Shown here: piece after piece, positions 6,426 through 52,029 of the stretch
Layout: the number at the start of each line of letters is the position of its first letter
Position numbering within the stretch: the stretch's first letter is position 1
Source: a virus
Strand: one strand, 5' to 3'
Length of the DNA stretch: 64,000 nucleotides
Virus record (IMG/VR): IMGVR_UViG_3300034782_000062
Location: 96,001-160,000 of that record
Position numbers and translations under genes: made by a program
Notes under the pieces: generated by a model
The model's database searches: none
What the model was told of the DNA's origin: nothing
What the model saw: only the letters and a program-made list of their open reading frames with translations

Positions 6426-6487
6426 AGAACCACAGTCCCCTATTAAAAAGGCAGCAAGGTCCCGCGTGCCCGCCGCCAAGATGGCGG

Positions 6488-26556: not shown

Positions 26557-26577
26557 CGAGGCGTTTGGAGAGATACG

Positions 26578-31431: not shown

Positions 31432-31489
31432 AGAACAGCATAAACCAATCGTCTTTAGGACGGTATGTTAGGGCGCGAAGGGGAATAAA

Positions 31490-34400: not shown

Positions 34401-35872
34401 ATACTGCAATTGGTATTACAACACCAACGTCCTCCGATATTCTATTGGTGAATAATGGCGTTGCGTCAGGTATCGGAACGGACACGGCGATTCTTGCGGC
34501 CATCACCAAGACTGCTGCGGGTACTGTTGCAGACTGGAGGACTATAGAATCCCAAATCAACGTCACAACAGGGTCTATTACAAATGCAAGGCACCTGAGG
34601 GCATTCTCTCCCGCTGGAGCAGGTTCTATCGGAACGATTTATGGCATCTATGTCGATACCCAGAAGACGGGGCCTGCTGCGGCGGCAACGTCCTATGGCT
34701 TTTATCAGGAGGGAACCGACGACGATAACTACTTCGCTGGTCAGACAAGCTTTGGAACGACGTCTCCTCTGACTACCCGCAGGGTCTATGTCGAGGTGGA
34801 TGACGGTGAGTCGTACACTCGGGGTGTCGAGGCGAGGTTTGTCAAGAATGGGGCCTCGGGCGCGCAATCCTTTACCGGCTTTGAAGCATCGGTAAGGCAC
34901 ACAGGTAATCAGGCTGGCTTGTCCTATTTCGGGTATTCGATGGACATCAACTTCTCGCCGAGCGCTACTCAGAACTTGACGAGGCTTGTTGGTTACGAGT
35001 CTGCTCCTGGCTCAGGAAGTAACGCGACGATCTCAGAAATCGTCGGATTCCGGGCCACCACTGACGAGCTTGATGGCGCCATTACCAACTGGTATGGGCT
35101 CGAAGTCGAGCAGCCGAATACCGTCGGAACTGGCATCACGAACGCCTACGGTGTCTACATCGAGGATCAGAGTGGAAACACTCTTTCCTATGGCATCTAT
35201 CAGGCGTCGTCTAATGACGTCAATTATTTTGCCGGCAATGTGGGTATCAACCAAACAGCGCCCCCCACTGCGAATTATTTGGACATAACCGACACCGATG
35301 ATTCGGCGCAGAAGCGTGGCGTCAACGTTTATCTTCCGAAGGATGGATCAAGCAATGGAAAGGTGTTCTTGGGATTCCGATCCAATATCGACCATACCGG
35401 AACGGGAAACGCGCTAGGATACTATGGCTTCCGATCGGATCTGCTTCTCAATAATGCGTCGGCGACTATTACGTCGATGTATGGTCTCTATGCTCAGCAT
35501 TTTACGACCGGCGGAACCATTACGAGTAACTACGGCCTCTGGACTGGAGCTACAGCGAGCGGTAGCGGATCAATTACCAACTCTTACGGTGTTTATATCG
35601 ACTCCATGGGGGGGGCGACTCTTAGCTTTGGTGTCTACCAGGCGAGCGCCGCGGACACCAACTACTTTGCTGGAGACATCGGAATCGGAACAACGTCTCC
35701 TGCAACGAGCGCAGGTCTTGAGATTTCATCGACAACGAGAGCGCTTCTTGTCTCCAGAATGAACACGACCCAGAGGAACGCGCTGACCGCAGCAGCCGGC
35801 ATGATCATATTCAACACCACGACATCGAAGTTCCAGGGCTACGACGGGTCCGCGTGGCAGGACTTCCACTAG
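31490..35872 (+). CDS. Giant fibre/adhesin-like protein (1460 aa) with trimeric-autotransporter-head-like repeats
   Basis: Shared N-terminal module; ~14-aa NVAVGYQAL/VVIGHSA repeats; C-terminal GMIIFNTTTSKFQGYDGSAW motif typical of phage fibres. Confidence 0.7.
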   Translation: MSNDYVTEIVGTGTYAIPSDDTELAAATSGLDTLISGVANLTYDRVLAWVEDSGGPGGAEGVRTLNCVIEKITYLANECPSETEIDTMTAAIESALEADANITSVGRQNFSCFAATGSSQLWLQDPGGFLYPSTTTDDVAVGGAIPNGKWFDDGDLVLGGNVMSGTERLRVFGDVLVDQDGSGRGNINLPATDTALTRGVYEINGSPALRVESNALYVGNSGASGVSKARSVAVGEGALSSVVNGSEENVAVGYQALQSLTLNNGESIAVGYRAAQSVVRADQTVVIGYDAMQNASITANENVVVGARACENSSLTFNSSVIIGHSAAFTGGGPTRGVFIGHQAGYSITSNPTETVAVGYQSLYNIIGTGGLGGDYNTCVGSESGRSLTTGSYNTFIGWECGRNAATNTQSNVAVGSGAFQTVATPSRWNIAIGNNSLGNTGGSAVEGNVSIGHSAGSTATAGYCVYLGYNAGQANATNNRLFIENSSDLNNPLIYGEFDGGGYLRVGGGMTIGNPKSAAPTGESVDAVYLDDGTNTTSGNPGWRYLVSTGPDVWADVGGGGGGSSPWTSAAGVIYPATITDDVAIGSSTLSGAANEHLFIKDTVESGLSTGAYILFEKNAADVKGAWNGVYVQIDHTGNSGLATGGYTSFWSDVNWSPAQTLNSNKGFLSQLDVANASGVVSDHKAFQAASPTGSGTITTSYGLFIDSMNGSTNSYGVYQSGTSDQNVFRGDTVVGALTMSGTELLRVAGNLRVDNDAVFVEQSDHSTTPAAGIGLLWVRNDSPNVLVFTDDAGTDTVLGAAGSSPWTSAAGVIYPSTLTDTVAVNSTSMLSSEKVFVKDDTEGGSSEGLIVQLEKDAATAKTNWTGVEVDTLLTGSSTTIVSPTSFLSDINLNVGTASVTGVATGYRTQLNVAGSASVASYMAFRSESPTVFGTLTNSYGLYIESMNGGTNSYGVFQQGSGDINYFAGNTAIGITTPTSSDILLVNNGVASGIGTDTAILAAITKTAAGTVADWRTIESQINVTTGSITNARHLRAFSPAGAGSIGTIYGIYVDTQKTGPAAAATSYGFYQEGTDDDNYFAGQTSFGTTSPLTTRRVYVEVDDGESYTRGVEARFVKNGASGAQSFTGFEASVRHTGNQAGLSYFGYSMDINFSPSATQNLTRLVGYESAPGSGSNATISEIVGFRATTDELDGAITNWYGLEVEQPNTVGTGITNAYGVYIEDQSGNTLSYGIYQASSNDVNYFAGNVGINQTAPPTANYLDITDTDDSAQKRGVNVYLPKDGSSNGKVFLGFRSNIDHTGTGNALGYYGFRSDLLLNNASATITSMYGLYAQHFTTGGTITSNYGLWTGATASGSGSITNSYGVYIDSMGGATLSFGVYQASAADTNYFAGDIGIGTTSPATSAGLEISSTTRALLVSRMNTTQRNALTAAAGMIIFNTTTSKFQGYDGSAWQDFH
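34750..35190 (+). repeat. 441-bp direct repeat, copy 2 (inside the 1460-aa gene)
   Basis: No mismatches to 29883-30323 seen by eye. Confidence 0.9.
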
Positions 35873-37980: not shown

Positions 37981-38352
37981 CTACTCGGTCGCGGGGTTTT
38001 CGGTCGTCGTAGTCTCGGTCGTCGTCTCGGTCTCGGTCTTGGTGTCCTTCGGCTTGTTCTTCGAGCCCTTGGGGCGACCGCGCCTCTTCGCGGGCTCCTG
38101 CGTCTTCGACTCGGCCTTGGACGCGGGGCGCCGCTTGCGCTTCTTGGACGCCGGGGGCGAGAGGAGGCTGCGGTTGTAGCGGACGAGTGCCTTGGCGATC
38201 TCCACCCCGTTGCCTTCCTTGGCGTCCTTGGTGATGAGGCCACCGGTCCTCTCTTTGAGCAGTGCGAAGTCGACATCGGGGTCTTCCGAGAGGAGTCGGA
38301 CGAGCTGGTCGTTGACTTCGTTGATTCGCTCTTCGGCCGTTTGGGTTGTCAT
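37981..38352 (-). CDS. Small DNA-binding protein with AT-hook
   Basis: KRRGRPKGSKNKPK; start MTTQ with GGAG RBS; overlaps the recombinase stop. Confidence 0.65.
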   Translation of the reverse strand: MTTQTAEERINEVNDQLVRLLSEDPDVDFALLKERTGGLITKDAKEGNGVEIAKALVRYNRSLLSPPASKKRKRRPASKAESKTQEPAKRRGRPKGSKNKPKDTKTETETTTETTTTENPATE

Positions 38353-39404
38353 GGTGTGTTCTCCTTCTTTCGGCCTCCCGGCCAATTGAGTTTTATGGAG
38401 CGGCCCGGCGACCTGCCGACCTGCTCGATTGCGCGATAATATCTGTAGGTCGTGTCGGTGCTGGAATGTCCCATCGAGGTTTGCACCTCTTGAATTGGGA
38501 CACCGGCGAGTAGTGAGAGCGTCGCATATGTATGTCTGAGACTATGGGGGTGGATGTTTTTGGTTATTCCAGCTTGCCCGATTCGAGCCTTGATAATGTC
38601 GTAGACCCCATCTGGTGTCAAACGGTTTTTGGTGACCTTTTCCCGCCCATTGCGGAATTTTCTGATTCTCCTGAAGACCGGCCCTTCGGTTATATTCGCA
38701 TCGACAAGCCACCTGTCAATAACGGCCCAGACCTTGGGTATAAACTCGATGGTGAGGTCTTTTCCTCGCTTGATGGTCAGTTTTACTGTTGGGGTGCCTT
38801 GAACGAAGCGAATCTTGTCGACATCGACCTGGATGACCTCGCTGCGGCGAAGGCCGTTGAAAATCATGACGGCGAACAGCGCGAGGTCTCGCTTGCCCAT
38901 GAACGAGTCGTCCTCGTAGCAAAGGGTGAGCATCGCCTCCGCCTCTTTGTCTTCAAGGCCCTCGGTATCGCTTCGGCTCGAAGTTCGCATCCTGGCGACA
39001 AGGTCTGACGACGCAGGGTTATCGTCAATGAGACCGAGCCGCATCATGCGTTTGAAAAGAGCGTTTAGGGCGGCAAGGCGCACGTTGATGGTTCGAGGGG
39101 CGTATTTCCTCTCTCTCAGTTGCTCTCGATATTCAGAGATGAGTGTGAATTTTACCTGGGGGAGAAGCGGTGTGGCGATCTTGAGAGTCTCAATATCACC
39201 CTCTGGCACTGTGGTTTCGGCTCGTTCGAGGATGTAGCGAGCGAAGTCGACCATCGCGTTTTTATAGGCGCGCTTGCTGTTGTTGCTGATGACGCCGGTG
39301 AGCGCAACATCCCAGACATCTTCGATGCCAGGGGTCGGCACTGTAAGCTTGGTCGCAGGAGTGTTGACGACCTCAATGCTCTCATTATCGTCACGCTGGG
39401 GCAT
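38349..39404 (-). CDS. Tyrosine recombinase (XerC/D-Cre-like) with SAM-like N-terminal domain
   Basis: Catalytic set GLRRSE, KRGK, HSLRH, MGH and YRY all present. Confidence 0.9.
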   Translation of the reverse strand: MPQRDDNESIEVVNTPATKLTVPTPGIEDVWDVALTGVISNNSKRAYKNAMVDFARYILERAETTVPEGDIETLKIATPLLPQVKFTLISEYREQLRERKYAPRTINVRLAALNALFKRMMRLGLIDDNPASSDLVARMRTSSRSDTEGLEDKEAEAMLTLCYEDDSFMGKRDLALFAVMIFNGLRRSEVIQVDVDKIRFVQGTPTVKLTIKRGKDLTIEFIPKVWAVIDRWLVDANITEGPVFRRIRKFRNGREKVTKNRLTPDGVYDIIKARIGQAGITKNIHPHSLRHTYATLSLLAGVPIQEVQTSMGHSSTDTTYRYYRAIEQVGRSPGRSIKLNWPGGRKKENTP

Positions 39405-39933
39405 CTGCGGTTACTTCAGCCGGCTCGTGGTCCTCTAGGGCTGGGGGTTCGTCCTCTTGCTCTTCCTCGGGATTATCCTGCGTCGTCTCATAGGGGGGGT
39501 CCTGGAGTAAGAATTGAAGGACAGACCCCTTATCCTTGAATGCGGCGTCGCGAATCTGTTCGAGGGTGCGAACCAGGGTGATTGACTGCTTTTTGGGGTC
39601 AGCCTGGTCGTGGGCAATCTTTCCAATTGAATCGAGCGTCTCCAGGATGAATTCACAGACCGAGCGCATGTGCCGGTTCTCGGTGATGAGCTTGTTGTTC
39701 TCGATTGATTTTTCCGTCGCCAGTTCGGCCCATTTCTCTCGCTCGGCCTCGACGGCTTGAAGCCACTCCCGCCACTGGTTAATAACGTCTGGGTCGACGC
39801 TGCTAGTGGTTGAGAGGTCAAATCGAAGTTGTGTGTTGTCTCTTTCGAGACTTTCCATGGCCTGGGCAGCGCTGATGGCGAACTTCTCCAGCTCGTCGCG
39901 CGTCATACCCTTAATGCCTACTTCATATTCCAT
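39391..39933 (-). CDS. Coiled-coil hypothetical protein
   Basis: Heptad pattern, acidic tail, overlaps neighbouring genes. Confidence 0.55.
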   Translation of the reverse strand: MEYEVGIKGMTRDELEKFAISAAQAMESLERDNTQLRFDLSTTSSVDPDVINQWREWLQAVEAEREKWAELATEKSIENNKLITENRHMRSVCEFILETLDSIGKIAHDQADPKKQSITLVRTLEQIRDAAFKDKGSVLQFLLQDPPYETTQDNPEEEQEDEPPALEDHEPAEVTADAPA

Positions 39934-40745
39934 CCGCGTAGCTCCTTGATCAGGTCGAAGGCTCCGTTGATTTCTTTGGCCTTTTTTTCATCGCCTTCGG
40001 CTTGGTTGTCTGGGTGATATTTGCGGGCGAGAACCTTGTGAGCGGCCTTGACGACCTCATCTGGTGCGTCAGGGCTGATGCCGAGTATTTTGTAGGCTTC
40101 ATGTCCAGGATGCTCCCGAGGTGGATCCGGCTCGTCCTCCTCCTCGTAGCGTTGTCGTTGTTTGGTGTCTCGCTTTTTTGCTCGTTGTTTGGTGCGTTGT
40201 CGAGCTTTTTTTCTTGCGGCGGCTTTTCGCTTCTTTTTCTTCCTTTCCTCTTCTTCAAAACGCTCTTCCTGCTCTTCATCGTTGGCGATCTGCTCGCACA
40301 TGCGGATCGCGCGGTCGGTGTAGTGCCTGTCCAGGTGCGGGTAATGTTTAGAAAGAAGAGCTTGAGCATTCCCGAACCAATAACAGTCGACACGCCAGCA
40401 ACGATCACTCGGGTCCCAGCGGCGAGCGCTGCGTGGAATCTGGCGTTTTAAATCTTCGATGTAGTCTTCGTTGAATGGGGACCAGATCTTGAAGTGTGTT
40501 CGGTCTGTGCTCAGCTCGATGGCAATCTTACTGATACTCATGTCATCGAGTCCTATGTCTGACAGCCCAGCCTCGCCTTCGTATCGTCCATAGTTTACGA
40601 ACTCCTCATCGGGGTGATGCCGAGTGCGAAGCTGGGCCGCTTGCGGCGGCGCGACACCGGGGACGGGCTGAACAAACGCGTCGGAGAGTGATTCCATGAA
40701 ACGCGCAATGTTAGCGGCATGCCTGAGGAATTGGAATTTATCCAC
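39918..40745 (-). CDS. J-domain (DnaJ-like) protein
   Basis: C-terminal AYKILGISPDA..KYHPD with intact HPD; charged linker. Confidence 0.8.
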   Translation of the reverse strand: MDKFQFLRHAANIARFMESLSDAFVQPVPGVAPPQAAQLRTRHHPDEEFVNYGRYEGEAGLSDIGLDDMSISKIAIELSTDRTHFKIWSPFNEDYIEDLKRQIPRSARRWDPSDRCWRVDCYWFGNAQALLSKHYPHLDRHYTDRAIRMCEQIANDEEQEERFEEEERKKKKRKAAARKKARQRTKQRAKKRDTKQRQRYEEEDEPDPPREHPGHEAYKILGISPDAPDEVVKAAHKVLARKYHPDNQAEGDEKKAKEINGAFDLIKELRGWNMK

Positions 40746-40780
40746 GGTGCACCCCCGAGATTTTTTTGTTGACCCTCAGA

Positions 40781-40796
40781 GGTAACATATGCTACC
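40781..40796. promoter_or_regulatory. Palindromic operator in a divergent intergenic region
   Basis: GGTAACATATGCTACC near-perfect 16-bp palindrome next to TTGACC. Confidence 0.6.
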
Positions 40797-41121
40797 CATG
40801 TTCACCTGGCCCCGGAGAACGAGCGAGATGGGTAAGCGTCGAGGTGGTGGACGGTTGAAAGGTGCGAACGCAACGTGCTGTTCGTGCGGAAAATGGGCGG
40901 ACAAAGTGTGCTCGCAGTGCGGGCGTTTGGTTTGTGAATCGTGCGCCAGGCAGTGGCCTGTGTCGCAGCGGAAAAAGGTCAAAGGTGAATTGAAGATCGT
41001 CGGCACGGCAACCATCATAACGTGCCCAGCAAACAAGTGCCAGTCAAGATTGCCGCTTCAGGTTAAGGCGGATGCCCTCGAACTGTTGAAGGTTCCAGGG
41101 GATTTCCAAGACGCCACATAA
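40789..41121 (+). CDS. Zinc-finger protein
   Basis: CCSC..CSQC..CESC..C..C; exact start uncertain. Confidence 0.55.
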   Translation: MLPMFTWPRRTSEMGKRRGGGRLKGANATCCSCGKWADKVCSQCGRLVCESCARQWPVSQRKKVKGELKIVGTATIITCPANKCQSRLPLQVKADALELLKVPGDFQDAT

Positions 41122-41642
41122 TGGTTCCCGACGGCGTCAACCAGGTCCGCCTCATGGGTCGAATCTACGATCGGCCTATCGCTCGCAAGGCGAAGGGGCA
41201 GCAGCTTATCAAGGCTGTCCTCGAAGTGGACGAGCCAAAATTCGAGGACGGCCAGTGGACCAAACGGACTTCCTATCACACGGTTTCGCTCTTCGGGACA
41301 ATAGCCAGGGTTTTTGATAAAAAATTAGACCATGGCGTTTTTATTTACGTCGAGGGGCGCCTTCATAATTTCCCCTATAAGGATGGCGAGGGGAAACAAC
41401 ATCTTCGCACTGAGGTCATGGCCTCACGCATTATCATCACCCCTCATCAGGAGGAGGAGGAGCAGGCTGAGCCCGAAGAGAGGGTGGAGCCTGCAGCCGA
41501 GGCAGAGGCTCAGCCAGTTCAACAGTCTCCAGAGCCTCCAGAAGAGCTGTCTGATGAGGACTTTGAGCACATGAAAAAGGTTGTTCCGCTCTTTCCTGAA
41601 AAAGATGAAGAGGTCGAAGACGAAGACCTTTTGCCGTTCTGA
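41121..41642 (+). CDS. ssb: Single-stranded DNA-binding protein
   Basis: NQVRLMGRI, YHTVSLFG, IYVEGRL and TEVMA OB-fold motifs; acidic tail ending DLLPF. Confidence 0.9.
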   Translation: MVPDGVNQVRLMGRIYDRPIARKAKGQQLIKAVLEVDEPKFEDGQWTKRTSYHTVSLFGTIARVFDKKLDHGVFIYVEGRLHNFPYKDGEGKQHLRTEVMASRIIITPHQEEEEQAEPEERVEPAAEAEAQPVQQSPEPPEELSDEDFEHMKKVVPLFPEKDEEVEDEDLLPF

Positions 41643-42288: not shown

Positions 42289-42398
42289 CAACCAACGAGC
42301 TGCCAGGGCTCCGGGGGCCGAACCGAGCCCCGTGCTCGGGGTCTGATGAGCGGTTCGTTACAGCATAATCCGTCCTGGGGACGGATATCGGAGGCAAG

Positions 42399-42992
42399 AT
42401 GGCGAAGGCACGCGGATCACCATCCGCCATGCAGGTGGAGGAGTTCGAGGTGACCATCGAGGGGACGTCCCCTCTCGTGTTGTTACCTTTGGGCTTCTTC
42501 AAGGACTGTCCTGACGACGAAGACGGCCAGCTCGAACGCGCGCTCGACCTGTATCGTCGCGAGGATGGCAATCCTGGGTTCCCGGCTGGCGGGCTCAAGG
42601 ACGCGATTCTGGAGGGCTGCAAGAAGCTCGACGCGGACACTCGTTACCGAGTCGCATCCGGTTTTCACATCGTCGGGGAGAACGCCACAAATCGAGTCCT
42701 CCTCAACGGGGACTCGGAAGGAGTCGACTTCGACTTCAACTTCAAGAGACCGAAACGCACCGTAACCAGGACGCTCCCACAACTCGACAAGTGGACTTGT
42801 GTCTTTCCGGTGCAGCTCGTGACCGGGAGCCTGGACTCGAAAGAGTTCAATGAGTTCCTCGGGGTGGCCGGAGAGAAGATCGGCATCGGACATCGCCGAC
42901 CTGAGATGGGCACCTTCAAGGTCACAAACATCGTTTCCAAGAATGGAATCAACAACCGCTCAAAGCGCAAAAGCAACAACAACAAGAGGTAA
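42399..42992 (+). CDS. Cas7/RAMP-fold-like protein, short paralog
   Basis: IEGTSPL, GFPAGGLKDAI and G-rich loop AGEKIGIGHRRPEMGTFKV; GGAGG RBS. Confidence 0.7.
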   Translation: MAKARGSPSAMQVEEFEVTIEGTSPLVLLPLGFFKDCPDDEDGQLERALDLYRREDGNPGFPAGGLKDAILEGCKKLDADTRYRVASGFHIVGENATNRVLLNGDSEGVDFDFNFKRPKRTVTRTLPQLDKWTCVFPVQLVTGSLDSKEFNEFLGVAGEKIGIGHRRPEMGTFKVTNIVSKNGINNRSKRKSNNNKR

Positions 42993-42997
42993 TCGAG

Positions 42998-43738
42998 ATG
43001 CCCGCGAAGAAGAAGAAAGATGAAAAGATCAAGATTGAGCCGCTGGAGTTCGAGATCGCCGTCCTCCAGATCATCGGTACCCGGCCACTGATCGTTCACG
43101 CCTGGGACCCCAAGACCCAGGCCGAGATGTTGGCGAAGCAGATGAAGCTGCCTGTCGCCGGGGCCAAGCAGAAGGTTCGCAACCCAGACGCCGAGTACGA
43201 GGCAGCACTCTACCGCATCCCCGAGGACATGGGAGGCGGATACGGGGTGCCCGCGGCGGCGTTCAAGCAGAGCTTCGTTGACGCCTGCCGTCATGTCGAC
43301 ATCGCAATGACGATGGCCACCGGAGCCTTCCACGTTCGAGGTGTCGAGGTGGACATGCCTCCTGTCATCCTCAACGACAAGGAGGGCAACCAGATCGAGA
43401 CGGGCGACAAGTCGATGGAGATGATCCCCATCTACGGCTCGGAGCCTCGTCGCCGGATGGATATGGTTCGCCTCGAAGGTGGTAGTGCCGATATGCGGTT
43501 CAGGCCGCAGTTCGACAAGTGGTACTGCCTGGTGCCCGTCCAGATCGCCAAGGGTACGCTCACGGTTCAGCAGGTCACCGACCTGGCAAACCGCGCCGGC
43601 TTCCACTGCGGCATCTGCGAGTGGCGCCCATTCTCGAAGAAGTCGAAGAACGGCTCCTATGGGATGTTCAAGGTCGCGACGACCAAGGAGGAGCAGAAGC
43701 TCTTCAAGTCGCTGAAGCCACCAACGTTTATCCTCTGA
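42998..43738 (+). CDS. Cas7/RAMP-fold-like protein, full-length paralog (Vipr-like)
   Basis: IIGTRPLIVH, GVPAAAFKQSF, RFRPQFDKW and G-rich loop AGFHCGICEWRP..GSYGMFKV. Confidence 0.75.
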   Translation: MPAKKKKDEKIKIEPLEFEIAVLQIIGTRPLIVHAWDPKTQAEMLAKQMKLPVAGAKQKVRNPDAEYEAALYRIPEDMGGGYGVPAAAFKQSFVDACRHVDIAMTMATGAFHVRGVEVDMPPVILNDKEGNQIETGDKSMEMIPIYGSEPRRRMDMVRLEGGSADMRFRPQFDKWYCLVPVQIAKGTLTVQQVTDLANRAGFHCGICEWRPFSKKSKNGSYGMFKVATTKEEQKLFKSLKPPTFIL

Positions 43739-43770
43739 TCGAGGAAAACTGACGGGGAAGGGACGCTCTT

Positions 43771-44274
43771 ATGGCCAAAGGAAGAATCTTCAAGTGGAAA
43801 AAGGGCTCGACCTTCAAGGTTGATGCCCAGACGGCTGGGACGTTTCTCGAAAATCTGAAGGCGGAGAATGACGGAATTCTTCAGCCTGACGACGTCGTCG
43901 AGGCAGCGAAGGACCCAGAATCTCCGATTCATGACGAGTTCGAGTGGGACCTTCAGAAGGCCGCAAATAATCACTGGAAGGACCGGGCGCGCAATCTTAT
44001 GAATCACCTCGCGGTGGTTCGTGTGTACGCCGAAGATGCCAGTGAGGGCGTCTCAGCCTTCGTCAATGTCGAGGTCGCTCAGTCGACACGTGGTTACGTG
44101 GCGATGTCTCAGGTCGTCGCAAACGATGACTGGCGTCAGCAGATGGTCGATGACGTGCTCAATCGTCTGAAAGCTCTTCAGAAGAAGTATGAGCAGCTCG
44201 ACGAGCTGGATGGCGTTTGGGCCGCGATCAAAAAAGCTGAGACGCGTCGAGCGAAGGGCTCGGCAGCAGCCTGA
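43771..44274 (+). CDS. Accessory protein of the RAMP/array locus, function unknown
   Basis: LQPDDVVEAA..SPIHDEFEWD..AA..W..RAR motif; lies between the RAMP genes and the array. Confidence 0.7.
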   Translation: MAKGRIFKWKKGSTFKVDAQTAGTFLENLKAENDGILQPDDVVEAAKDPESPIHDEFEWDLQKAANNHWKDRARNLMNHLAVVRVYAEDASEGVSAFVNVEVAQSTRGYVAMSQVVANDDWRQQMVDDVLNRLKALQKKYEQLDELDGVWAAIKKAETRRAKGSAAA

Positions 44275-44321
44275 CCAGGCTGAAACGATGCTCTTTGACA
44301 ATCTGGTTTTCTGAAGCAAAA

Positions 44322-44590
44322 GGCAGCAAGCTCCTGCTTAGGCGGCGAGTGTCTTCCTGTTCTTAGGTGGGTCGGGTTTTGTCCCGCCAGCCGAGTTGGG
44401 CCACGGTTAGCCATGGACCGACTAGCTGGGTCGGGTCGCGTCTCGGCCGGCGGGTCTGTTAAGGATTTGTCTTGAAAGAGATGGTCTCGGCAGTCACGGA
44501 TAGGAATGGGACGGCCAGGGGGCGGAGCATTGGCAACGATGGCTCCGTCAAGCACCGAATAGGCAGTCACGTCGAGGCGAAAGACGTGAT
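44322..44590 (+). ncRNA. Proximal mini-array of pentamer-repeat units (~5 units)
   Basis: Delimiters GGCAG/GCCAG/GGCCG at 44322, 44386, 44445, 44489 and 44562; spacings 64, 59, 44, 73; G-led pentamers. Confidence 0.65.
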
Positions 44591-44607
44591 ACATTACATT
44601 TACTCTT

Positions 44608-44703
44608 GTAGGTGTCGGGTGCCAGTTTTTTTTTGGGCGGCATGGGGTCGTCCGATGTCATCAGTTGCTGATGAGGTAGTGGGCACTGGCACCCGCCACC
44701 TAC
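44608..44703. other. Long stem-loop separating the mini-array from the main array
   Basis: 19-bp IR with one mismatch (44608-44626/44685-44703), inner 7-bp hairpin 44658-44674, followed by TTTT. Confidence 0.7.
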
Positions 44704-44723
44704 TTTTCATTCATCTTGAGGAT

Positions 44724-47700
44724 GGCAGCCAAGCCATGTCGAGCACAGGCGGCGACGGCAACGTTCCGCACTGCGAAGGCATGGAGAGCACAGCCCTGGC
44801 AGTCATGCTAGGGAGCGCTTTGCTCAGCGTTGGCTTGCTAAGCACCGCCGTTGATCGCAACGTCGCGGCAGCCGAGTTCTGAAGTGTTGAGTGGTGCCGG
44901 GGAGGGGCGGTGCGTGTCTGCGCGCACCTTGCCTTTGTAAGCGGTGACCTGGCAGTCGTGTCGAGGCGAGAAGCGGCACGTTGGGTCTATCACAGCGTAG
45001 GCGAAGCCGGGCAGCCGTGTCGCGGATGTGTAGCCTAGGGGCGGCACGTCAGTGAGGGGATATCCCGGTCCAGGCAGCTTTGCGTTGCTGTGCATCGTCA
45101 GTCGGCGGAAGCCAACGCGATCCCACGGAACGGCAGCGATGGAGAGCAGGAGAGGGTCCACGCGGCGCAAACCGGGGTGGGCCAAGGTGCGATTGGAATG
45201 GCAGTCGAGGCGAATATCGACTACAGCCATCGCGGCTCGCCTCTACTGGTTGTGGCAAACAATGTTTTGCGACGGCCATGGTGGGGCAGCCTAGGTGAGC
45301 AGAGTGCTGGTGAGCATGGGCCAGTCGCGCTTGAGAACGTCTTGTCGCGGCAGCCGGTCAACGGTATGGGTAGGAGTGTCATTCACTGTCGCTCCCGTCA
45401 ATGCCGAGTCGAGGCAGTCGGGTCATGTTGGAGTCGGGATAGCCGGTCATAGCGGGCGCCTGCCCCGTCAGAGCAGCCGCGGAAATCATAGGATCGCACG
45501 GGGTCGGAATTTAGTGGTTCGGCAGCCGTGTCAGGGTCCGCTCTGCTTGGGATCCGAGCGCCAAGCTCAGGCGCAGATGGCCGAGGCAGCCATGTCGAGT
45601 TGGTTATGGTTGTGCAGGTCACGCTGAGTCGTGCAGCACCGAGGCAGTCGGTCAGTGCCCCGTCGATGCCGGTTACGCGATGCGTAGGTGGTGATGGGAC
45701 TGCCGAGGCAGCCGAGGACAGGACGGTCCCGCCCTGGACAGTCATAGCCAGGGGTGCTTTGTCAAGACGAGGCAGCCGAGGATGCATGGGTGCGCTGGGT
45801 CAGGTTTCGCCATTCAGGTGAGTGCGCTGTCGTGGCGTTATTACGGCAGCAGTGCCCTGTCGGGATCCGTCACACCGGGGAACTCAGGGGTAACCAGAGG
45901 TTTGCTCTGGCAGTCGGGCAATGTCAGCGTCTGCTCAGCAGCCGCTTGTCCTGCTGATGAGAGCCCAGCCCTGGCAGTCGGGCCTAGCACGGGACCGTTG
46001 AGCAATTCCATGGAGCGTCGTTGCAGGCGTTGCGGGGAGTGGTCGTCCGGTCACTCAACGCGATGGAACGCTAAGGTGTGCTGAGGCAGCGGTGCCTGGG
46101 AGCGTTGAGTCCAGCCATTATGGGCTTGGCCGAGGCAGCGGTGTTGAGGCGAGCTTGGCAGTGGCCCGTCCGGTCGAATAGATCCTTGTCGATCAGCGGC
46201 AGCCCTGCTGGGGAGTGGCCAGTCGCGTTCTGAACGCTATTGCTCGCAAAGCGTGGGTGAGGCAGCGGTGCCTCGTCGAGGTCAGCAACGCAATGGAAGG
46301 CAAAGGCCGAGAATGGACAGGATCGGCAGCGAGGTCGTGGCGATATACGGTCTGGCAGCAGTGTCTAGGTCGGTCGGGCTAGCTCAGTCATGGCCAACAA
46401 GGTCATGGTCGGGAGAGTCGAGGCCGGCATGTTTAGTCCGGCCCTTTGAGGCACAGGATTGGAAAGGTGAGGCAGTCGAGTCGAGTCGTTGTGGGGCCTT
46501 CAGGGGCAAACAACGGTGTGGCAGTCACGCGATGGTAGGTTCAGTCGCGTCCTGCTCAGCAATTCCTAGGAGAGCCTGGGGATGCAATGGCAGCTTTGCC
46601 AAGGGTGGGTGAGCACAGGCCTTCAGCGAAAAGTCGTTTCGCGTCGCGGCAGCCTGGTTGAGTTGAGGTCTCGCATGACGGTCCTTGGACCGCCGAGTCC
46701 CGACGCGGCAGCTATGCCCTGTCGTGTCATTCCCAGTCATTCAATGCAGAGGATTGGAAAGGGTGGCCGAGGCAGCAAAGCACCGGACGGGAGAGCCGTG
46801 TGACGTAAGGGGGAGCACCGCAGGTCAGAGCTAAGGTCCGGTTTGGCGAAATAAACCGACTAAGGCAGCTTTGCCGGTGTAGGCGATGGTTGTTTTTGGT
46901 GAGCTTGGTTGATCAGAGTAAGGGCAGCCGAGCAGAGGAACGTCATCGGATGCCTGGTCGTCCTAAGGACGGACGAGTCTAGGCAGCACCGCAGAGCGGG
47001 GGACAGCGATGCGGCTCAGAGCATAGCAAGGGCTAGTCGCGGCAGCCTTGCTCTGTCCAGCTCGGGCGAGTCAACTCTGCGAGAGGACCGCTCGGGCCGG
47101 GATAGCGCCGGCAGCCGGGTCACGGCCTGGATCTCCAAGCAATGGATTCGCAGTGTGGGTCCGGTTATGGCAGCAACGCACAGCGAAGGCAGGCATTGGA
47201 ATACCATGTCAGTCTTAGGTCCGCCACGATCAGGCAGTAAAGCTGGGGATTGAAGCGTCGCGGAGAATTGTGTTGCGCAATTGCGAGGCGAAAAAGCATT
47301 TGCGTTACGGCAGCGGTGCATAGGCTTGTTCAGCAAGCGCGTGCCAAGCCCGCGGGCGTCGTGGCAGCCGGGCACTGAAACGTCCAGGATCGGAGCAGCC
47401 TGCTTCCGCAGGTGGTGCCGAACCCGGTTGGGTCCTGGCAGCCGGGGATGGTTGTTCTGGGGCCAGGAGCCCCTGGTTATTCAGAACAGGGGTTTGGCAG
47501 CCGGCGTGAGCTGGGGCCAGGAGCCCCTGGTCGTCGCGAACGTTGGCCCGAAGAGGCAGCAGGGCTGAGGATGGGGGAGCTGAGGCCAGACGCCGCATGT
47601 CTTGATCTGCATAGTCACGTCCTGGCGATATCAGATGTGACTTTGCTTTGCCGAATGGGGGAGCGTGTTGGTTTGGCAGCCCTGCGTTGGGTAGGACCGG

Positions 47701-48365
47701 TTAGTCCGGGACTTCCACGTCGGGCCGCTCATTGGACTGGCCGTCGAGTTGGGCCGGGGCACAATGGACCGCAGAGTTACGTCTCGTCCCGCCAAGGCAG
47801 CCGCGGTTCGTCACCGAACTCCATGCGACAGTTTGGGAGTCCGGGGACGGCAACGGATCGGCAGCCATGTCGCCGAGGGGCTTGCGATGCAGGGCACTGC
47901 AGGGGCATTCAGGTGCGCACCCTGGCAGCGATGCTGCGGAGGGGTGGGTCATTGAATGCTGGGCACTGCCGCCGCGCTGCGGGCCGTATCCTGGATAGGC
48001 AGGCGCCCCCCGGACTGGGGAGCCTTGACCTCCAATGGCGCTCTCAGGAGAGAAACGCCGTGGCAGCCGTGCTGATCCAAGGAGCGGAGCGCTTCGGAGA
48101 GGTGGGTCCGTCATGTCCATGGATTCGCTTAGGGAAGGACCGGCAGCAGCGTCTTGGTGACGAGTGGATTGTTCTGCTCGGCCCAAGCAAACATTGTCGC
48201 GGCAGCCATGTCCAGGTCCGTCACGTTTCGTCTTGCTTCTCAAAGCAATGGGGAGAGCGGGCGGGTCGGCGCCAGGCAGCAGCGGGTTGGGGTGCACAGC
48301 CGCGCCGCTGAGGGGAGTACCTCGGAGATCTACGGATAGGCAGTCACGACCTGGCGATATAGGAG
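44724..48365 (+). ncRNA. Main non-coding pentamer-repeat array (~56 units), putative guide-RNA array
   Basis: GGCAG recurs about every 49-84 nt; 43 of 55 intervals equal 5n+4; units parse as GGCA followed by G-led pentamers; no credible ORF. Confidence 0.85.
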
Positions 48366-48399
48366 TGGCTTGAAAACATCTTGAGGATGGAGGGTTTTT

Positions 48400-48621
48400 G
48401 TGGGTAGAGGAACAACGAAAAAGGCTCTCAAACAGATCGAGAGCTTCAACAAGAAAAATCCGGTCGGAACGCCGGTGCGCTACTGGCCTGGTGTCAAGCA
48501 GGGCGCCGGTGTCGAGTCCAAGACGAGGTCCGAGGCATGGGACCTCTGCGGTAGCCCGTCGGTCATGGTCGAGGGCTACAGCGGTGGCATCGCTTTGACG
48601 CATGTCGAAGTTATGCAGTAA
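48400..48621 (+). CDS. Small phage protein
   Basis: PVGTPVRYWP..TRSEAW..VMVEGYSGGIAL; GGAGG RBS; GTG start. Confidence 0.6.
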   Translation: MGRGTTKKALKQIESFNKKNPVGTPVRYWPGVKQGAGVESKTRSEAWDLCGSPSVMVEGYSGGIALTHVEVMQ

Positions 48622-48630
48622 GACAACGAT

Positions 48631-49098
48631 ATGCCTCGAAAAAAGAAGCCAGCGATCTATCTCTCTAACTGGTCGAGCCACAGGACCAAGGGACACCACG
48701 GTCCCGGCCGAAAATTCAGCATCATGGTCCGGACATCGAGGTTTGCGAAGCCCGATGGAAAAGTTCCGGTTCTCGTCCCATTGTCGAAAGACCTGTGGGA
48801 GCTGAAAGGCGAAACCATTACGGTCGATGAGTATCGAGAGCGATACTTCAAGCACGTTCTTCAAAAAAAGGATGAGCTGGCGCCCGGAAAGCTGCTCTGG
48901 AATCCCTTTAACTTCTTTAAGGAGAAGGATCGCAAGCCTGTCGAGGACGGCGACACGCTCTGCTGCGTCTGCTCTCGCGAGCAGGCGGCAAGGGGAGAGT
49001 GTCACCGGGTCTGGGTGGCCGTAATGCTTCAGGAAGCCGGATGGAAAGTCATCCTGGACGGAAAAGAAATTCCACCTCCAAGACCAGATTCTGGTTGA
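48631..49098 (+). CDS. DUF488-like protein
   Basis: LVPLSKDLW..DEYRERYF..TLCC..CHRVWVA pattern. Confidence 0.55.
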   Translation: MPRKKKPAIYLSNWSSHRTKGHHGPGRKFSIMVRTSRFAKPDGKVPVLVPLSKDLWELKGETITVDEYRERYFKHVLQKKDELAPGKLLWNPFNFFKEKDRKPVEDGDTLCCVCSREQAARGECHRVWVAVMLQEAGWKVILDGKEIPPPRPDSG

Positions 49099-49131
49099 CC
49101 TGCCCCCTCCCAAAAAGTAACATATGCAACC
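49095..49131 (+). promoter_or_regulatory. Promoter with overlapping palindromic operator
   Basis: TTGACC-17 nt-TAACAT; AGTAACATATGCAACC at 49116-49131, directly before the ATG at 49132. Confidence 0.65.
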
Positions 49132-49410
49132 ATGCCGAAGAACCCGCACAACTCGTTGGTTGCTCTCGATCCACCAAGAAAACATCCACCTCGCAGGTGG
49201 CGGTGTCGATATTGCGGCATCGAGGGAACCTATGACGAGGTCGAAGCCATCGAGTGCAGTTACGAATATCCACCCTGCGAATTCTGCGGACAGACGCCGA
49301 CCTGCGCGCTTGACTGTCCAGGCATTGCTTTGGCGCTCTCGGGAGCGTTGACACCCGAGGTCGACCTTCACGTCGTTGGCTCGGTCGATCCGGAGGGCGA
49401 GACAAACTGA
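49132..49410 (+). CDS. Small zinc-binding protein
   Basis: CRYC, CEFC and further cysteines. Confidence 0.6.
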   Translation: MPKNPHNSLVALDPPRKHPPRRWRCRYCGIEGTYDEVEAIECSYEYPPCEFCGQTPTCALDCPGIALALSGALTPEVDLHVVGSVDPEGETN

Positions 49411-49417
49411 GGGGGAG

Positions 49418-50839
49418 ATGTCCAGGAAGAAAAAAAAGAAGAAGCGCGTGACGGGAGTGCCCAAGCGCACCAAGAAGCCCGACCACGTCTTCCCGATGAA
49501 GCTGGATATTCCCGACGACATTATCGAGGAGCTGGGTCCAGATCGGGAGCTTGGTGTTCACCTGGTTCGTGAAAAGGGCGAGCTACGAATGAAGCCAAAT
49601 CCTGAGGATGAAGACATCTGGGAGAAGCTTCTTCGGCACAAAGATTTCGACGTCAGCAGCCTCGTCGTCGATGAGAGCCAAATTACCCTTGTTGACAAGG
49701 TCACGGGCGAGCCCATCAAGGCTTCTCCCGGCCGAGCGGCTGTCGACTCGTGCATGTTCCTGATGAGCTGGCTGCGCAAGAATTCGCAGACAGAGATGAG
49801 GCACGTCAATCACGACAAGGAGTGGTTCGATCTGCTTGCTCACTGGCGGGCGCTGTGGGCTACCATGCAGCTCGCTCGTGTCATAGAATTCCCGCTCTCG
49901 TCATGGTGGCGTCTTGAGGAGCAGCTCGAAGCCACGCTCTGGACGCCCTTCGTCAAACAGGAAGGTGAAGACGCTTTCCATTCCTATCTCCAAACGTTCT
50001 ATCGGCGCCCAGAGTGCGTGCCACCGGAAAAGGTGCCGTTCAATGTTATGTGGATCGGTATTGAGCGTGGCGTCGACATGAAACGACACGACTCGACGTG
50101 GCTCAAGCGCATCTATCAAGAAAAGGTCTTCCACGACGTCGAAGACGATATCATTCTGCTGGGCTACCACGTTCAGTACAACAGCCCCGATAAATATGAC
50201 GAGAGATCAGCGTCGTTCATTATCCAGGAGCTGTACTACATCGAGAAGAACGGCAAGGTCGCGATCATCCCGAAGGTATTCATCTACAACTTTGCCGAGA
50301 AGCGATGGAACATCACGGAGGACGGTCCAGGGATGCTCATCGTCCAGATGATCATCGACATCATCAATGATCACAAGCGCTTTATCGTCGAGAAGGGGAA
50401 GGGTAAGAAGTCCCAGAAGGCTCTTCGCAAGGCGAGCAAGAAGGCAGGGAGCATTGGCTACGTGCCGGCACCCTACTACGTCGTTCGTCTGAAGGATGAA
50501 TTGGTCGAGGACATAGCTCGCGACGAGCATGGCTCCCGGCCTCGGTTCCTGAGCCACCGCTACGACCGTCGTGGTCACGAACGTTGTTACGTTCGTCGCG
50601 GGCCACTTCCGCTCGACCCGGAGCTGTACGCGAAGCTTCAGAAGGCCGGATACAAGATCTTCACGACGGCTGACCCGGACGCCGAGACCTATCGTCGGCT
50701 GATGCGCCGGCAGATGAAGCCCAAGTCTCACGATGAATGGCTGGCGATCCTGACGAAGTGGATCGAGGCGACGGTCTGCGGCGATGAGTCACTGCCCTAC
50801 GTGCCAGCGGTGCGAGTACCGACCAAGCTGGCCGGATAG
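49418..50839 (+). CDS. Hypothetical phage protein with C-terminal RRGHER motif
   Basis: GGGGGAG RBS; basic N-terminus; HRYDRRGHER..WIE tail. Confidence 0.65.
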   Translation: MSRKKKKKKRVTGVPKRTKKPDHVFPMKLDIPDDIIEELGPDRELGVHLVREKGELRMKPNPEDEDIWEKLLRHKDFDVSSLVVDESQITLVDKVTGEPIKASPGRAAVDSCMFLMSWLRKNSQTEMRHVNHDKEWFDLLAHWRALWATMQLARVIEFPLSSWWRLEEQLEATLWTPFVKQEGEDAFHSYLQTFYRRPECVPPEKVPFNVMWIGIERGVDMKRHDSTWLKRIYQEKVFHDVEDDIILLGYHVQYNSPDKYDERSASFIIQELYYIEKNGKVAIIPKVFIYNFAEKRWNITEDGPGMLIVQMIIDIINDHKRFIVEKGKGKKSQKALRKASKKAGSIGYVPAPYYVVRLKDELVEDIARDEHGSRPRFLSHRYDRRGHERCYVRRGPLPLDPELYAKLQKAGYKIFTTADPDAETYRRLMRRQMKPKSHDEWLAILTKWIEATVCGDESLPYVPAVRVPTKLAG

Positions 50840-50848
50840 AGAGGTTCG

Positions 50849-51382
50849 ATGCCCGCGTTGTGCTACGGAGCACCTCCGTTCAATTGTCCCGGCACCAGCG
50901 ATGACGACCACTGCCCGAAGTGCGGCCAGTGTCGTCATCATGTTCTTGTCGGAGGCGGAGACTCGCTCGTCAAGGCGTTCATCGACGGGCTGTACATGCG
51001 CGATCCCAGCTCGATGGACCCGGAGAACTTCGGGAACCGCGAGTACAAGGGTGCCTGCGAGGAGTGCGGCCGACCGATCTACTCTGGGTGGATGAAGGTC
51101 TACCTCGATGATGAACGCGAGGCACCAGAGGGCTGGTTCAGGGTGCACTGGCCCGAGGAGGCGATTGTTCTGCTTGAGCGGGGGCTCGTTGCGCACATCA
51201 GCCTCGATCATGACTTGGGAGACGACGAACACGGTACCGGGTATGACGTGATCCTCTGGTTGGAGGAGGCTGTCGCGACCCGCGGTTTCGAGCCTCCAGA
51301 GATATCGATTCACACGGCGAATCCGTCGGCTCGAAAGCGTATGGAGGCTGGAGCTGAGAGGATTCGGAGGTTGGCAGAATGA
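50849..51382 (+). CDS. Cyclic-phosphate-processing receiver-like domain (cREC) with N-terminal zinc-binding region
   Basis: MKVYLDDERE..ISLDHDLG..GTGYDV..W.E..HTANP. Confidence 0.75.
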   Translation: MPALCYGAPPFNCPGTSDDDHCPKCGQCRHHVLVGGGDSLVKAFIDGLYMRDPSSMDPENFGNREYKGACEECGRPIYSGWMKVYLDDEREAPEGWFRVHWPEEAIVLLERGLVAHISLDHDLGDDEHGTGYDVILWLEEAVATRGFEPPEISIHTANPSARKRMEAGAERIRRLAE

Positions 51383-52029
51383 AGGACTACCCTTCGATTC
51401 CATACATAGCCGACGGCCTCCCTTCTGGCGAGTTTTGGTACGTCTTCGATAAGCTCGACGGCTCGAATATCCGGGCCGAGTGGAGCCGTAAGAAAAAAGG
51501 TGGCAAGGCGACATGGCGCTTCGGTCGTCGCCACGGACTGCTCGACGACACCAACGAGTTTTTACCCGAGGCTCAGGATCTGATCCGTAAACAGTGCTGC
51601 GGCATCCTGGAGAAGCTGTTCTGGGACCGCATGTGGGAGCGCGCCACGGCATTTTTCGAGTTCCGAGGCGAAAACTCCTTCGCCGGTCATCATCAGAACG
51701 AGGAGCATACGGTCACGCTGATCGACGTAGCCGTCTACAAGAAGGGGTTGCTGGAACCCGGCAAGCTCATCAAGATGTTCGGTGACCTGCCATTGCCCGG
51801 AATACTGTTTCGTGGCCAGCTCGACGAGGACGATGAGCGAGAGCTTATCGAACGCATTCACGCGGACGAACTCGAAGGGGTCACCTCCGAGGGCGTCGTC
51901 TTCAAGTCGGCCCGCTTCGAGCGCAAGCTGGGCCACCCGCTGATGTTCAAGGTCAAGACTGAGGCGTGGAAGCAGCGACTCAAAGAGTTCGTCGGTGGCG
52001 ATGAGTATAAGTTCAAGAAGCTGCTCTGA
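51379..52029 (+). CDS. RNA ligase-like nucleotidyltransferase
   Basis: DKLDGSN (KxDG motif I), FFEF (III), EGVVFK (IV), FKVK (V). Confidence 0.75.
   Translation: MKDYPSIPYIADGLPSGEFWYVFDKLDGSNIRAEWSRKKKGGKATWRFGRRHGLLDDTNEFLPEAQDLIRKQCCGILEKLFWDRMWERATAFFEFRGENSFAGHHQNEEHTVTLIDVAVYKKGLLEPGKLIKMFGDLPLPGILFRGQLDEDDERELIERIHADELEGVTSEGVVFKSARFERKLGHPLMFKVKTEAWKQRLKEFVGGDEYKFKKLL

Follow-up and report, generated by a model that had tools for sequence, protein, structure and literature searches.

A locus in the genome of an uncultured wetland phage very probably encodes a VIPR system with a staggered array of about 60 guides, operating as in the model proposed below. The window analyzed here is a stretch of 64,000 nt that covers positions 96001-160000 of one virus record of 182,770 bp (G+C 56.7%), IMGVR_UViG_3300034782_000062 of IMG/VR; the phage is thus ~183 kb in size, and the stretch is present in public wetland metagenome runs. 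VIPR is a CRISPR-like RNA-guided DNA silencer that was first described in 2026 (bioRxiv 10.64898/2026.04.26.720920), and its structures (bioRxiv 10.64898/2026.04.26.720927) and biology (bioRxiv 10.64898/2026.10.15.759431) have been reported separately. The first of these preprints counted 670 Viprs in 667 systems, distinguished seven types and noted the alternative pentamers NNNGG, YNNNG and NNNNG; according to the VIPR preprints, the guide RNAs (vrRNAs) range from 9 to 16 pentamers, each made of a GGY scaffold and a variable NN. A first-pass annotation of the DNA, made from the letters alone, had named phage VIPR systems as a match for the locus, and that match was correct, since bioRxiv 10.64898/2026.04.26.720920 and its companion.720927 describe the system. 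Within a family and a staggered layout that are already known, the locus is a variant marked by its giant array, relaxed scaffold and second RAMP.

Three co-oriented open reading frames (ORFs) at 42399-44274 run into ~4.1 kb of sequence, up to 48389, that contains no real ORF. These coordinates agree with those first annotated, and the only long ORF in the tract, which covers the array end at 47701-49521 (- strand, 606 aa), was rejected as spurious, being an antisense shadow of conserved + strand genes. In window coordinates, the genes and the tract are:

42399..42992, + strand: P0001, short Vipr paralog, 197 aa (phrog_4652, E 1.9e-11; BLASTP against P0002)
42998..43738, + strand: P0002, Vipr, a putatively filament-forming RAMP, 246 aa (profile against PDB 36pp; AlphaFold 2 model; Foldseek)
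43771..44274, + strand: P0003, Vipr-accessory protein (Vap), 167 aa (phrog_15946; homologs directly 3' of vipr)
44275..44723, + strand: leader, with degenerate units (GGCAG at 44322, 44489 and 44562) and a long hairpin
44724..48389, + strand: staggered vrRNA array, ~55 GGCAG-delimited units of 9-16 pentamers of the form G-B-H-N-N

Neither P0001 nor P0002 had a match in Pfam, and both matched phrog_4652. A profile built from P0002 and 32 homologs matched one solved protein, the 'SUSP1 Vipr protein' (PDB 36pp; E 3.5e-12, residues 4-192 of 202). The fold check suggested at the outset was carried out on P0002: its AlphaFold 2 (AF2) model (pLDDT 88.7) has a predicted Cas7/Csm3-type RAMP fold, and the top Foldseek matches were all Cas7-family RAMPs (Csm3, type VII Cas7, Cmr6 and gRAMP). 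In the SUSP1 structure preprint, H17 and D177 read the first G of the scaffold, R138 and W178 read the second and R179 forms the pocket for Y3; these residues align with H34, E208, R167/R169, W209 and R210 of P0002, respectively, and the equivalents are kept family-wide, with E at the D177 position. Judged by family profile and by the fold of the model, P0002 is a Vipr.

The tract downstream of the genes has a regular grammar. GGCAG occurs 58 times on the + strand of 44275-48389, an approximately tenfold excess over the 1.45 per kb found elsewhere in the window, and its reverse complement is not enriched over the same interval. Thirty-eight of the 58 spacings equal 5n+4 (49, 59, 64, 69, 74 and 84; binomial p 7e-14). 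The autocorrelation of G over the array peaks at lags 5, 10, 15 and 20 and 75-90% of units have G at each fifth base counted from the junction. The pentamer lattice can be written G-B-H-N-N, in which position 2 avoids A, position 3 avoids G and the last two positions are unconstrained. A five-state phase-tracking model that was blind to GGCAG placed 77 frame shifts in the array, 74 of them -1 and 62 located at GGC^AG, which identifies the punctuation as a 4-nt GGCA step. This step closes each unit, with neighboring units sharing 1 nt and lacking a 3' tail, and corresponds to the published 'staggered arrays', in which vrRNAs derive from 1-nt-overlapping positions (bioRxiv 10.64898/2026.04.26.720920, fig. 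S18 legend). Thus, the GGCA punctuation singled out in the first-pass annotation is present, but it represents a published layout rather than a new grammar. The strict grammar claimed there does not extend to every unit: ~36-38 units are clean, with 9-16 pentamers each, the remainder are fused or decayed, and the leader units are degenerate. The over-long units fit fusions across mutated junctions; for example, a 108-nt unit resolves into 59+49 with AGCAG at 45475. Two adjacent 59-nt units (window 47437-47555) have a common GGGGCCAGGAGCCCCTGGT palindromic core and NN strings that overlap with a shift of one pentamer, as if one target were tiled or a unit had been duplicated. No hammerhead or other Rfam family was found in the array at a permissive threshold, no tRNA was found in it by ARAGORN, and it contains no CRISPR-type repeats, the longest repeat being the GGCAGYC junction.

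Comparison with relatives indicates which properties of the locus are unusual. IMG/VR holds 482 relatives of P0002, and the best 80 were taken as a distant set (33-41% identity). These 80 lie mostly on viral contigs of 30-70 kb with one vipr each, and nearly all have a vap homolog and a same-strand period-5 tract, mostly of ~0.4-0.8 kb and up to 1.6 kb. The three distant arrays that were inspected are strict GGY/NN with the junction GGCA|GGC or GGCY|GGC and the same 1-nt stagger. Among cultured phages, P0002 has homologs in a cyanophage, a Pseudomonas phage and phages of Mycobacterium and Gordonia; megablast of the locus against cultured phages gave no match. Close relatives, in which Vipr is 66-82% identical, are found on contigs of up to 290 kb; all have the extra paralog, and their arrays of 2.6-3.7 kb contain 44-59 GGCAG junctions on the same relaxed G-B-H-N-N lattice. 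Paralog, giant array and relaxed scaffold co-occur in five of five close loci as opposed to none of the 80 distant loci. The differences that had been proposed from sequence alone (two paralogs, ~60 units and a relaxed pentamer) are all real.

The paralog P0001 is the first gene of the operon, lies 5 nt upstream of vipr and is 26% identical to P0002 (BLASTP, E 2e-14). P0001 and its four orthologs retain the RAMP core and the helix-1 motif but lack the HAW...KQM segment that carries the equivalent of SUSP1 His17, and they have a shorter thumb from which most of the thumb insertion is gone. The G-loop of the P0001 type is G-[IL]-G-H-[RD]-R-P (G-I-G-H-R-R-P in P0001 itself) and is without the 8-residue insertion, as compared to G-I-C-E-W-R-P plus an 8-aa insertion in P0002. 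From these alignments, P0001 is a diverged Vipr paralog without the guanine-reading residues, as equivalents of His17, Asp177 and Trp178 are all missing. A second RAMP of a CRISPR type was considered for P0001 and ruled out because its nearest relative is P0002 itself. A protein that keeps its core and helix-1 motif but has lost the reading residues and the thumb insertion could also be an anti-VIPR decoy. In that case, it would be a defective RAMP acting on the VIPR filaments of rival phages, which it would poison or cap, and not a subunit of its own system. Rivalry of this kind has a precedent, since published VIPR systems and solo vrRNAs are aimed at rival VIPRs (VIPR preprints). However, P0001 opens the operon immediately before vipr, and it is present in all five giant-array loci (orthologs 49-58% identical) and absent from the 80 canonical loci; since this distribution is restricted to giant arrays, P0001 is tied to the type of array rather than to competitors, and we consider the decoy explanation quite unlikely.

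Comparison between arrays shows selection on the specified letters of the guides. By overall identity, the arrays of different phages have almost no units in common. When only N4/N5 were matched, however, 13 guides proved to be common to the arrays of phages whose Viprs are 66-82% identical. Identity across these 13 guides was 0.87/0.96 at N4/N5, compared with 0.72 at G1, 0.46 at position 2 and 0.36 at position 3. Selecting on other pairs of non-G1 positions returned only 0-4 pairs, in which N4/N5 identity was random, and even for units chosen by overall identity the unique mismatches numbered 59 on scaffold positions versus 7. The shared guides are not collinear between arrays. Because N4/N5 are conserved while the scaffold bases are randomized, there is selection on the guide letters, which is the opposite of decay; at the level of sequence comparison, this is an independent confirmation of the published code.

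Targets were sought by reading guides as NNx, in which the NN dinucleotides are specified and every third base (x) is skipped. Three of the guides read as follows:

46471..46519, + strand: guide GA GA GT GG CT GG AA AC GT, spelling D-[D/E]-V-G-L-G-K-T-V (phrog_62 helicase motif I)
45413..45471, + strand: guide GG AT GG CG TA GG TA GG CT CC AG, spelling G-[I/M]-G-R-Y-G-Y-G-L-P-S (GHKL ATP lid)
45845..45908, + strand: guide spelling V-L-G-P-T-G-T-G-K-[D/E]-[F/L]-L (AAA+ Walker A; only near matches)

Guide 46471 (18 specified bases) had 60 exact matches in IMG/VR viral contigs compared to 2 for the reversed pattern. Of these 60, 59 lie in frame on the string D[D/E]VGLGKTV, which constitutes motif I in the SNF2-type phage DNA helicases of phrog_62. 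Guide 45413, whose NN string is identical in one of the close relatives (L001), had nine matches when 20 bases were specified, 8 of them in metagenome contigs and one in a genome; all nine are in frame at GGTHRE.[DN]R.G[MI]GRYGYGLP with x on the wobble base, and one target matches at 22 of 22 positions. The gene matched encodes a GHKL ATPase (PF13589) of ~600 aa that is remotely similar to MzaB and to BbrUII-type restriction enzymes. In each of the four loci long enough to show it, a full-length DruA (PADLOC DruA1, E 1e-228 and 3e-252) follows on the same strand 3' of the GHKL target. Upstream of the targeted gene there is often another GHKL paralog, and a patatin gene is nearby in one locus. 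Among the matched target loci, only a skip of 1 reproduced the guide matches. Taken together with the conservation of N4/N5, these sequence matches agree with the original proposal that the variable bases specify a target, and they show for guides 46471 and 45413 that the published 1-nt-skip code applies. We judge the odds that guide 45413 has a counter-defense role to be roughly even.

The targeted module often consists of three genes, two GHKL ATPases that are 30-33% identical followed by DruA (L087, 2434-5489; also L088, L093 and L094). In a further locus (L089), druA is not followed by another gene of 120 aa or more on the same strand; the other loci end soon after it or were unread there. 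This two-GHKL plus DruA module may be an undescribed Druantia-related system. The ninth GHKL match (L095) and one Walker A near match (L100) are in the same genome, G001, and the claims made here are independent of both.

Other searches for targets gave fewer results. For guide 45845, 401 genomes of the class of G001 (Alphaproteobacteria) contained only matches with 3 mismatches, at the Walker A motif of genes of the AAA+/enhancer-binding type, which is suggestive but does not amount to a target. Exact NNx scans of viral contigs with guides 45413, 47110, 45845, 47363 and 44867 yielded 0 matches each, and several other guides translate into motif-like strings (Walker A, methyltransferase motif I, an XRE-type helix) without exact matches. 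No self-targets above background were found in the 183-kb phage genome at skips of 0-3, as in other VIPRs, which are also without self-targets (VIPR preprints), and the phage has no GHKL or DruA homolog. All clean guides searched against 1.4 Mb of related loci returned only array-to-array homology, and the other guides of the five arrays had no match in the 69 target loci.

Guides 45413 and 46471 have the same sense as their target mRNAs, and a guide of mRNA sense cannot pair with the mRNA, so that DNA is favored as the target. Recognition of RNA, as in the type III, type VII or gRAMP Cas7 assemblies, would be in keeping with the nearest solved folds outside VIPR, which are the RNA-targeting Csm3, Cmr and type VII Cas7, and with a Vap in which no DNA-binding domain was recognized. 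Not only the sense of both decoded guides is at odds with it but also the 1-nt skip that their matches obey, which the SUSP1 structures explain by a DNA triplex (bioRxiv 10.64898/2026.04.26.720927), and the homology of P0002 to a DNA-binding Vipr. We therefore regard an RNA target as highly improbable in comparison to double-stranded DNA.

Several points weigh against interpreting the locus as a functional VIPR system. The scaffold is much looser than the GGY of SUSP1 although P0002 keeps the reading residues, and many units have a poor lattice, with G1 in 5-8 of 11-14 pentamers, such that they may be dead. Exact targets were obtained for only two of the seven guides scanned; the motif-directed matches could partly reflect how common the motifs are, and the matched gene families were seen on viral or bacterial contigs rather than in an infected cell. 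In addition, staggered arrays are not among the published layouts confirmed by small-RNA sequencing (bioRxiv 10.64898/2026.04.26.720920), and the predicted fold of the Vap is uninformative: Foldseek with the P0003 model returned nothing at E <= 0.001, and VIA returned only a generic helical hairpin.

Some of these features would also be explained if the tract were a decaying or neutrally drifting relic of a GGY/NN array beside real Vipr genes, with the target matches being accidents of common motifs. GGY accounts for only 0.31 of the pentamers compared with 0.79-0.97 in the three canonical arrays, about one third of the units are irregular in phase or poor in G1, and five of the seven scanned guides have no exact match. 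Nevertheless, neutral drift would not be expected to preserve the relaxed lattice and the junction in five diverged phages, to conserve N4/N5 where the scaffold is randomized, or to give guide 46471 its 60 matches (59 in frame) against 2 for the control. Moreover, identical pieces of the array are present on contigs of four other wetland samples, among which no informative gain or loss of units was seen. A relic thus appears extremely unlikely, and a functional, if loosely built, VIPR array remains our preferred interpretation.

The third gene, P0003, is on sequence grounds a conserved accessory partner of Vipr, as a homolog lies directly 3' of vipr in 76 of the 80 distant loci and in every close locus tested. 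Its AF2 model (pLDDT 85) shows a helical protein that includes a beta hairpin and, at the C terminus, a helical hairpin; it has no recognized enzymatic domain, PADLOC had no match for either P0001 or P0003, and in the Atlas it falls only into virus-only, unnamed clusters. No nuclease was recognized in the locus and, because of this, transcriptional silencing is the likely outcome of target binding, as in SUSP1. Published types III-V instead destroy the target by means of enzymatic vap genes, and comparable destruction here would require the ribonucleoprotein to recruit a nuclease or helicase from the host or from another part of the 183-kb genome. Such an enzyme could have been missed, as the screen covered only ~10 kb around the locus and family matches are lacking for many neighboring genes, and a ParB-nuclease-like/methyltransferase fusion and RNA-repair genes are present elsewhere in the window. 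However, the conserved partner, present in 76 of the 80 distant loci and in the close relatives tested, is a small protein without a recognized enzyme domain, relatives show no nuclease gene in synteny with the locus, and the nuclease-bearing published types are cellular and reside in defense islands (VIPR preprints). For these reasons, we consider destruction of the target very unlikely.

The mechanism that we propose for this VIPR system is as follows. The vipr paralog, vipr, vap and the array would be transcribed rightward from an operator-controlled promoter, and P0002 would polymerize on the transcript with one protomer per pentamer. By analogy with the SUSP1 structures, each protomer would hold G1 firmly and positions 2-3 loosely, leaving positions 4-5 exposed. 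The -1 shift of the lattice at GGCA would end one filament and start the next, a role in processing that is suggested by the grammar, so that the array would yield ~60 separate guide ribonucleoproteins of 9-16 protomers each without the need for a tail or ribozyme. Each ribonucleoprotein is predicted to pair its NN dinucleotides with double-stranded DNA in a triplex, as in SUSP1, skipping every third base, which places the skip at the wobble position of codons. The guides would be directed to the parts of genes that encode motifs and are conserved most strongly, such as those of the SNF2-type helicases of rival phages and of the bacterial, Druantia-related GHKL ATPase-DruA operon, and the predicted outcome is transcriptional silencing. 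More speculatively, P0001 may cap, phase or cut units at the GGCA junction and thereby permit the loose scaffold.

Several of these features can be placed against known systems. Like the published staggered-array VIPRs, the locus combines a Vipr RAMP, a small vap and downstream units of 9-16 pentamers without CRISPR repeats in a viral setting, and relaxed pentamers (NNNGG, YNNNG and NNNNG) are mentioned as variants in the same preprint; it differs in having ~60 units over 4.1 kb, as opposed to the ~0.4-0.8 kb of most distant relatives, in its second, diverged Vipr paralog and in strongly keeping only one scaffold base. With the type II VIPR of Escherichia phage SUSP1 (PDB 36pp), it has in common the Vipr profile homology and conserved GGY-reading residues, the 1-nt skip placed on wobble bases, guides that lie in conserved coding segments, a small vap without a recognized enzyme domain and the absence of an evident protospacer-adjacent motif. 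However, SUSP1 has four vrRNAs of ~100 nt with an invariant 3' tail and pseudoknot, in contrast to the bare GGCA step, and its guides converge on one satellite, whereas the two decoded guides match unrelated families, one of them a bacterial defense-type operon. The backbones of class 1 CRISPR-Cas systems (Cas7/Csm3) resemble this system in the RRM/RAMP fold, the G-rich loop, the thumb, the fixed step along the guide RNA and the specialized second RAMP beside the backbone RAMP (there Cas5 and Cas6), but here there is no repeat-spacer array, Cas1, Cas2, large subunit or nuclease, the step is 5 nt rather than 6 nt, and the guide is gapped rather than contiguous. Finally, the non-canonical VIPR arrays found with a genomic language model (bioRxiv 10.64898/2026.10.21.760802) also have period 5 beside Vipr-like folds and a trinucleotide other than GGY. 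Those arrays, of ~10 repeats, use other fixed or singly degenerate trinucleotides (GAC, CAC, WGT and TGH), while here two of the three scaffold positions are constrained only negatively (not A; not G).

Candidate regulatory elements flank the array. A 13-bp palindrome, CRTCYT-S-ARGAYG, is found phage-wide, with 40 sites in the window compared to 1.7 expected. Its copies at the locus are (no strand assigned):

42371..42383: one mismatch, 16 nt before P0001, at the same position in relatives L084 and L086
44712..44724: exact, abutting the first clean unit
46959-46971: one mismatch, inside the array
48377..48389: exact, at the array end, with the same placement in relative L083

The location of these palindromes, before P0001 and on either side of the clean array, suggests that a phage regulator controls the locus, and from its position the copy at 42371-42383 is a probable operator at the operon promoter. 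A scan of the locus for promoter and terminator consensus sequences gave nothing above shuffled sequences. The leader hairpin (~44608-44706), which separates the degenerate units of the leader from the first clean unit, consists of an 18-bp outer stem around two small hairpins and a T9 run and is followed by a U-rich stretch; this region folds better than shuffles (z -3.45), and the hairpin could function in termination, attenuation or processing.

The surroundings of the locus agree with the initial report of no Cas1/Cas2, nuclease or CRISPR repeats: no cas genes, including Cas1 and Cas2, were found among the neighbors screened, which are an SSB, a DnaJ protein, an integrase and small genes without a family match. 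The flanking features conserved in relatives are:

38349-41642: tyrosine integrase (- strand), DnaJ-domain protein (- strand), SSB (+ strand) and zinc-ribbon gene (+ strand), upstream of the VIPR locus
48400..48621, + strand: 73-aa gene, the first one conserved beyond the array

The slot between vap and the conserved 73-aa gene is a fixed genomic position inside which the arrays vary. In relatives, an AcrVA2-like gene (Pfam PF26125) lies ~5 kb upstream of the VIPR locus (L001, 3789-5036, - strand; L086, 3382-4005), which hints at a counter-defense neighborhood. An RNA-repair pair, comprising a cyclic-phosphate-processing receiver-domain gene (PF20274) and an RNA ligase gene, is encoded 2.5 kb downstream of the array (window 50849-52029). 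Farther away, a 522-aa protein (window 4911-6479, - strand) fuses a ParB-like nuclease/partition domain to a DNA methyltransferase domain, and three very large ORFs (655, 1617 and 1460 aa; window 24589-35872) have neither a Pfam nor a PHROG match.

The natural range of VIPR is barely charted, and this locus extends it to a staggered, tail-less array scalable to ~60 guides, with a scaffold that can be reduced to one conserved G while N4/N5 are still under selection. The relaxed scaffold and 4-nt punctuation could inform the design of compact multiplexed guide arrays. Guides against host defense genes as well as rival phages would widen the role proposed for VIPR in competition between elements, and the presence of a second RAMP exactly where the arrays are giant bears on the origin of multi-RAMP CRISPR complexes. 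A bolder interpretation, which we consider possible but unlikely, is that this clade of huge wetland phages maintains a library of ~60 guides that silences both rival helicases and bacterial defense operons and is enabled by a second RAMP that caps or cuts units at the GGCA junctions and permits a nearly free scaffold. If so, the system would represent an RNA-guided, escape-resistant and broad-spectrum form of counter-defense, as well as a natural intermediate between single-RAMP VIPR and the multi-RAMP effector complexes of CRISPR.

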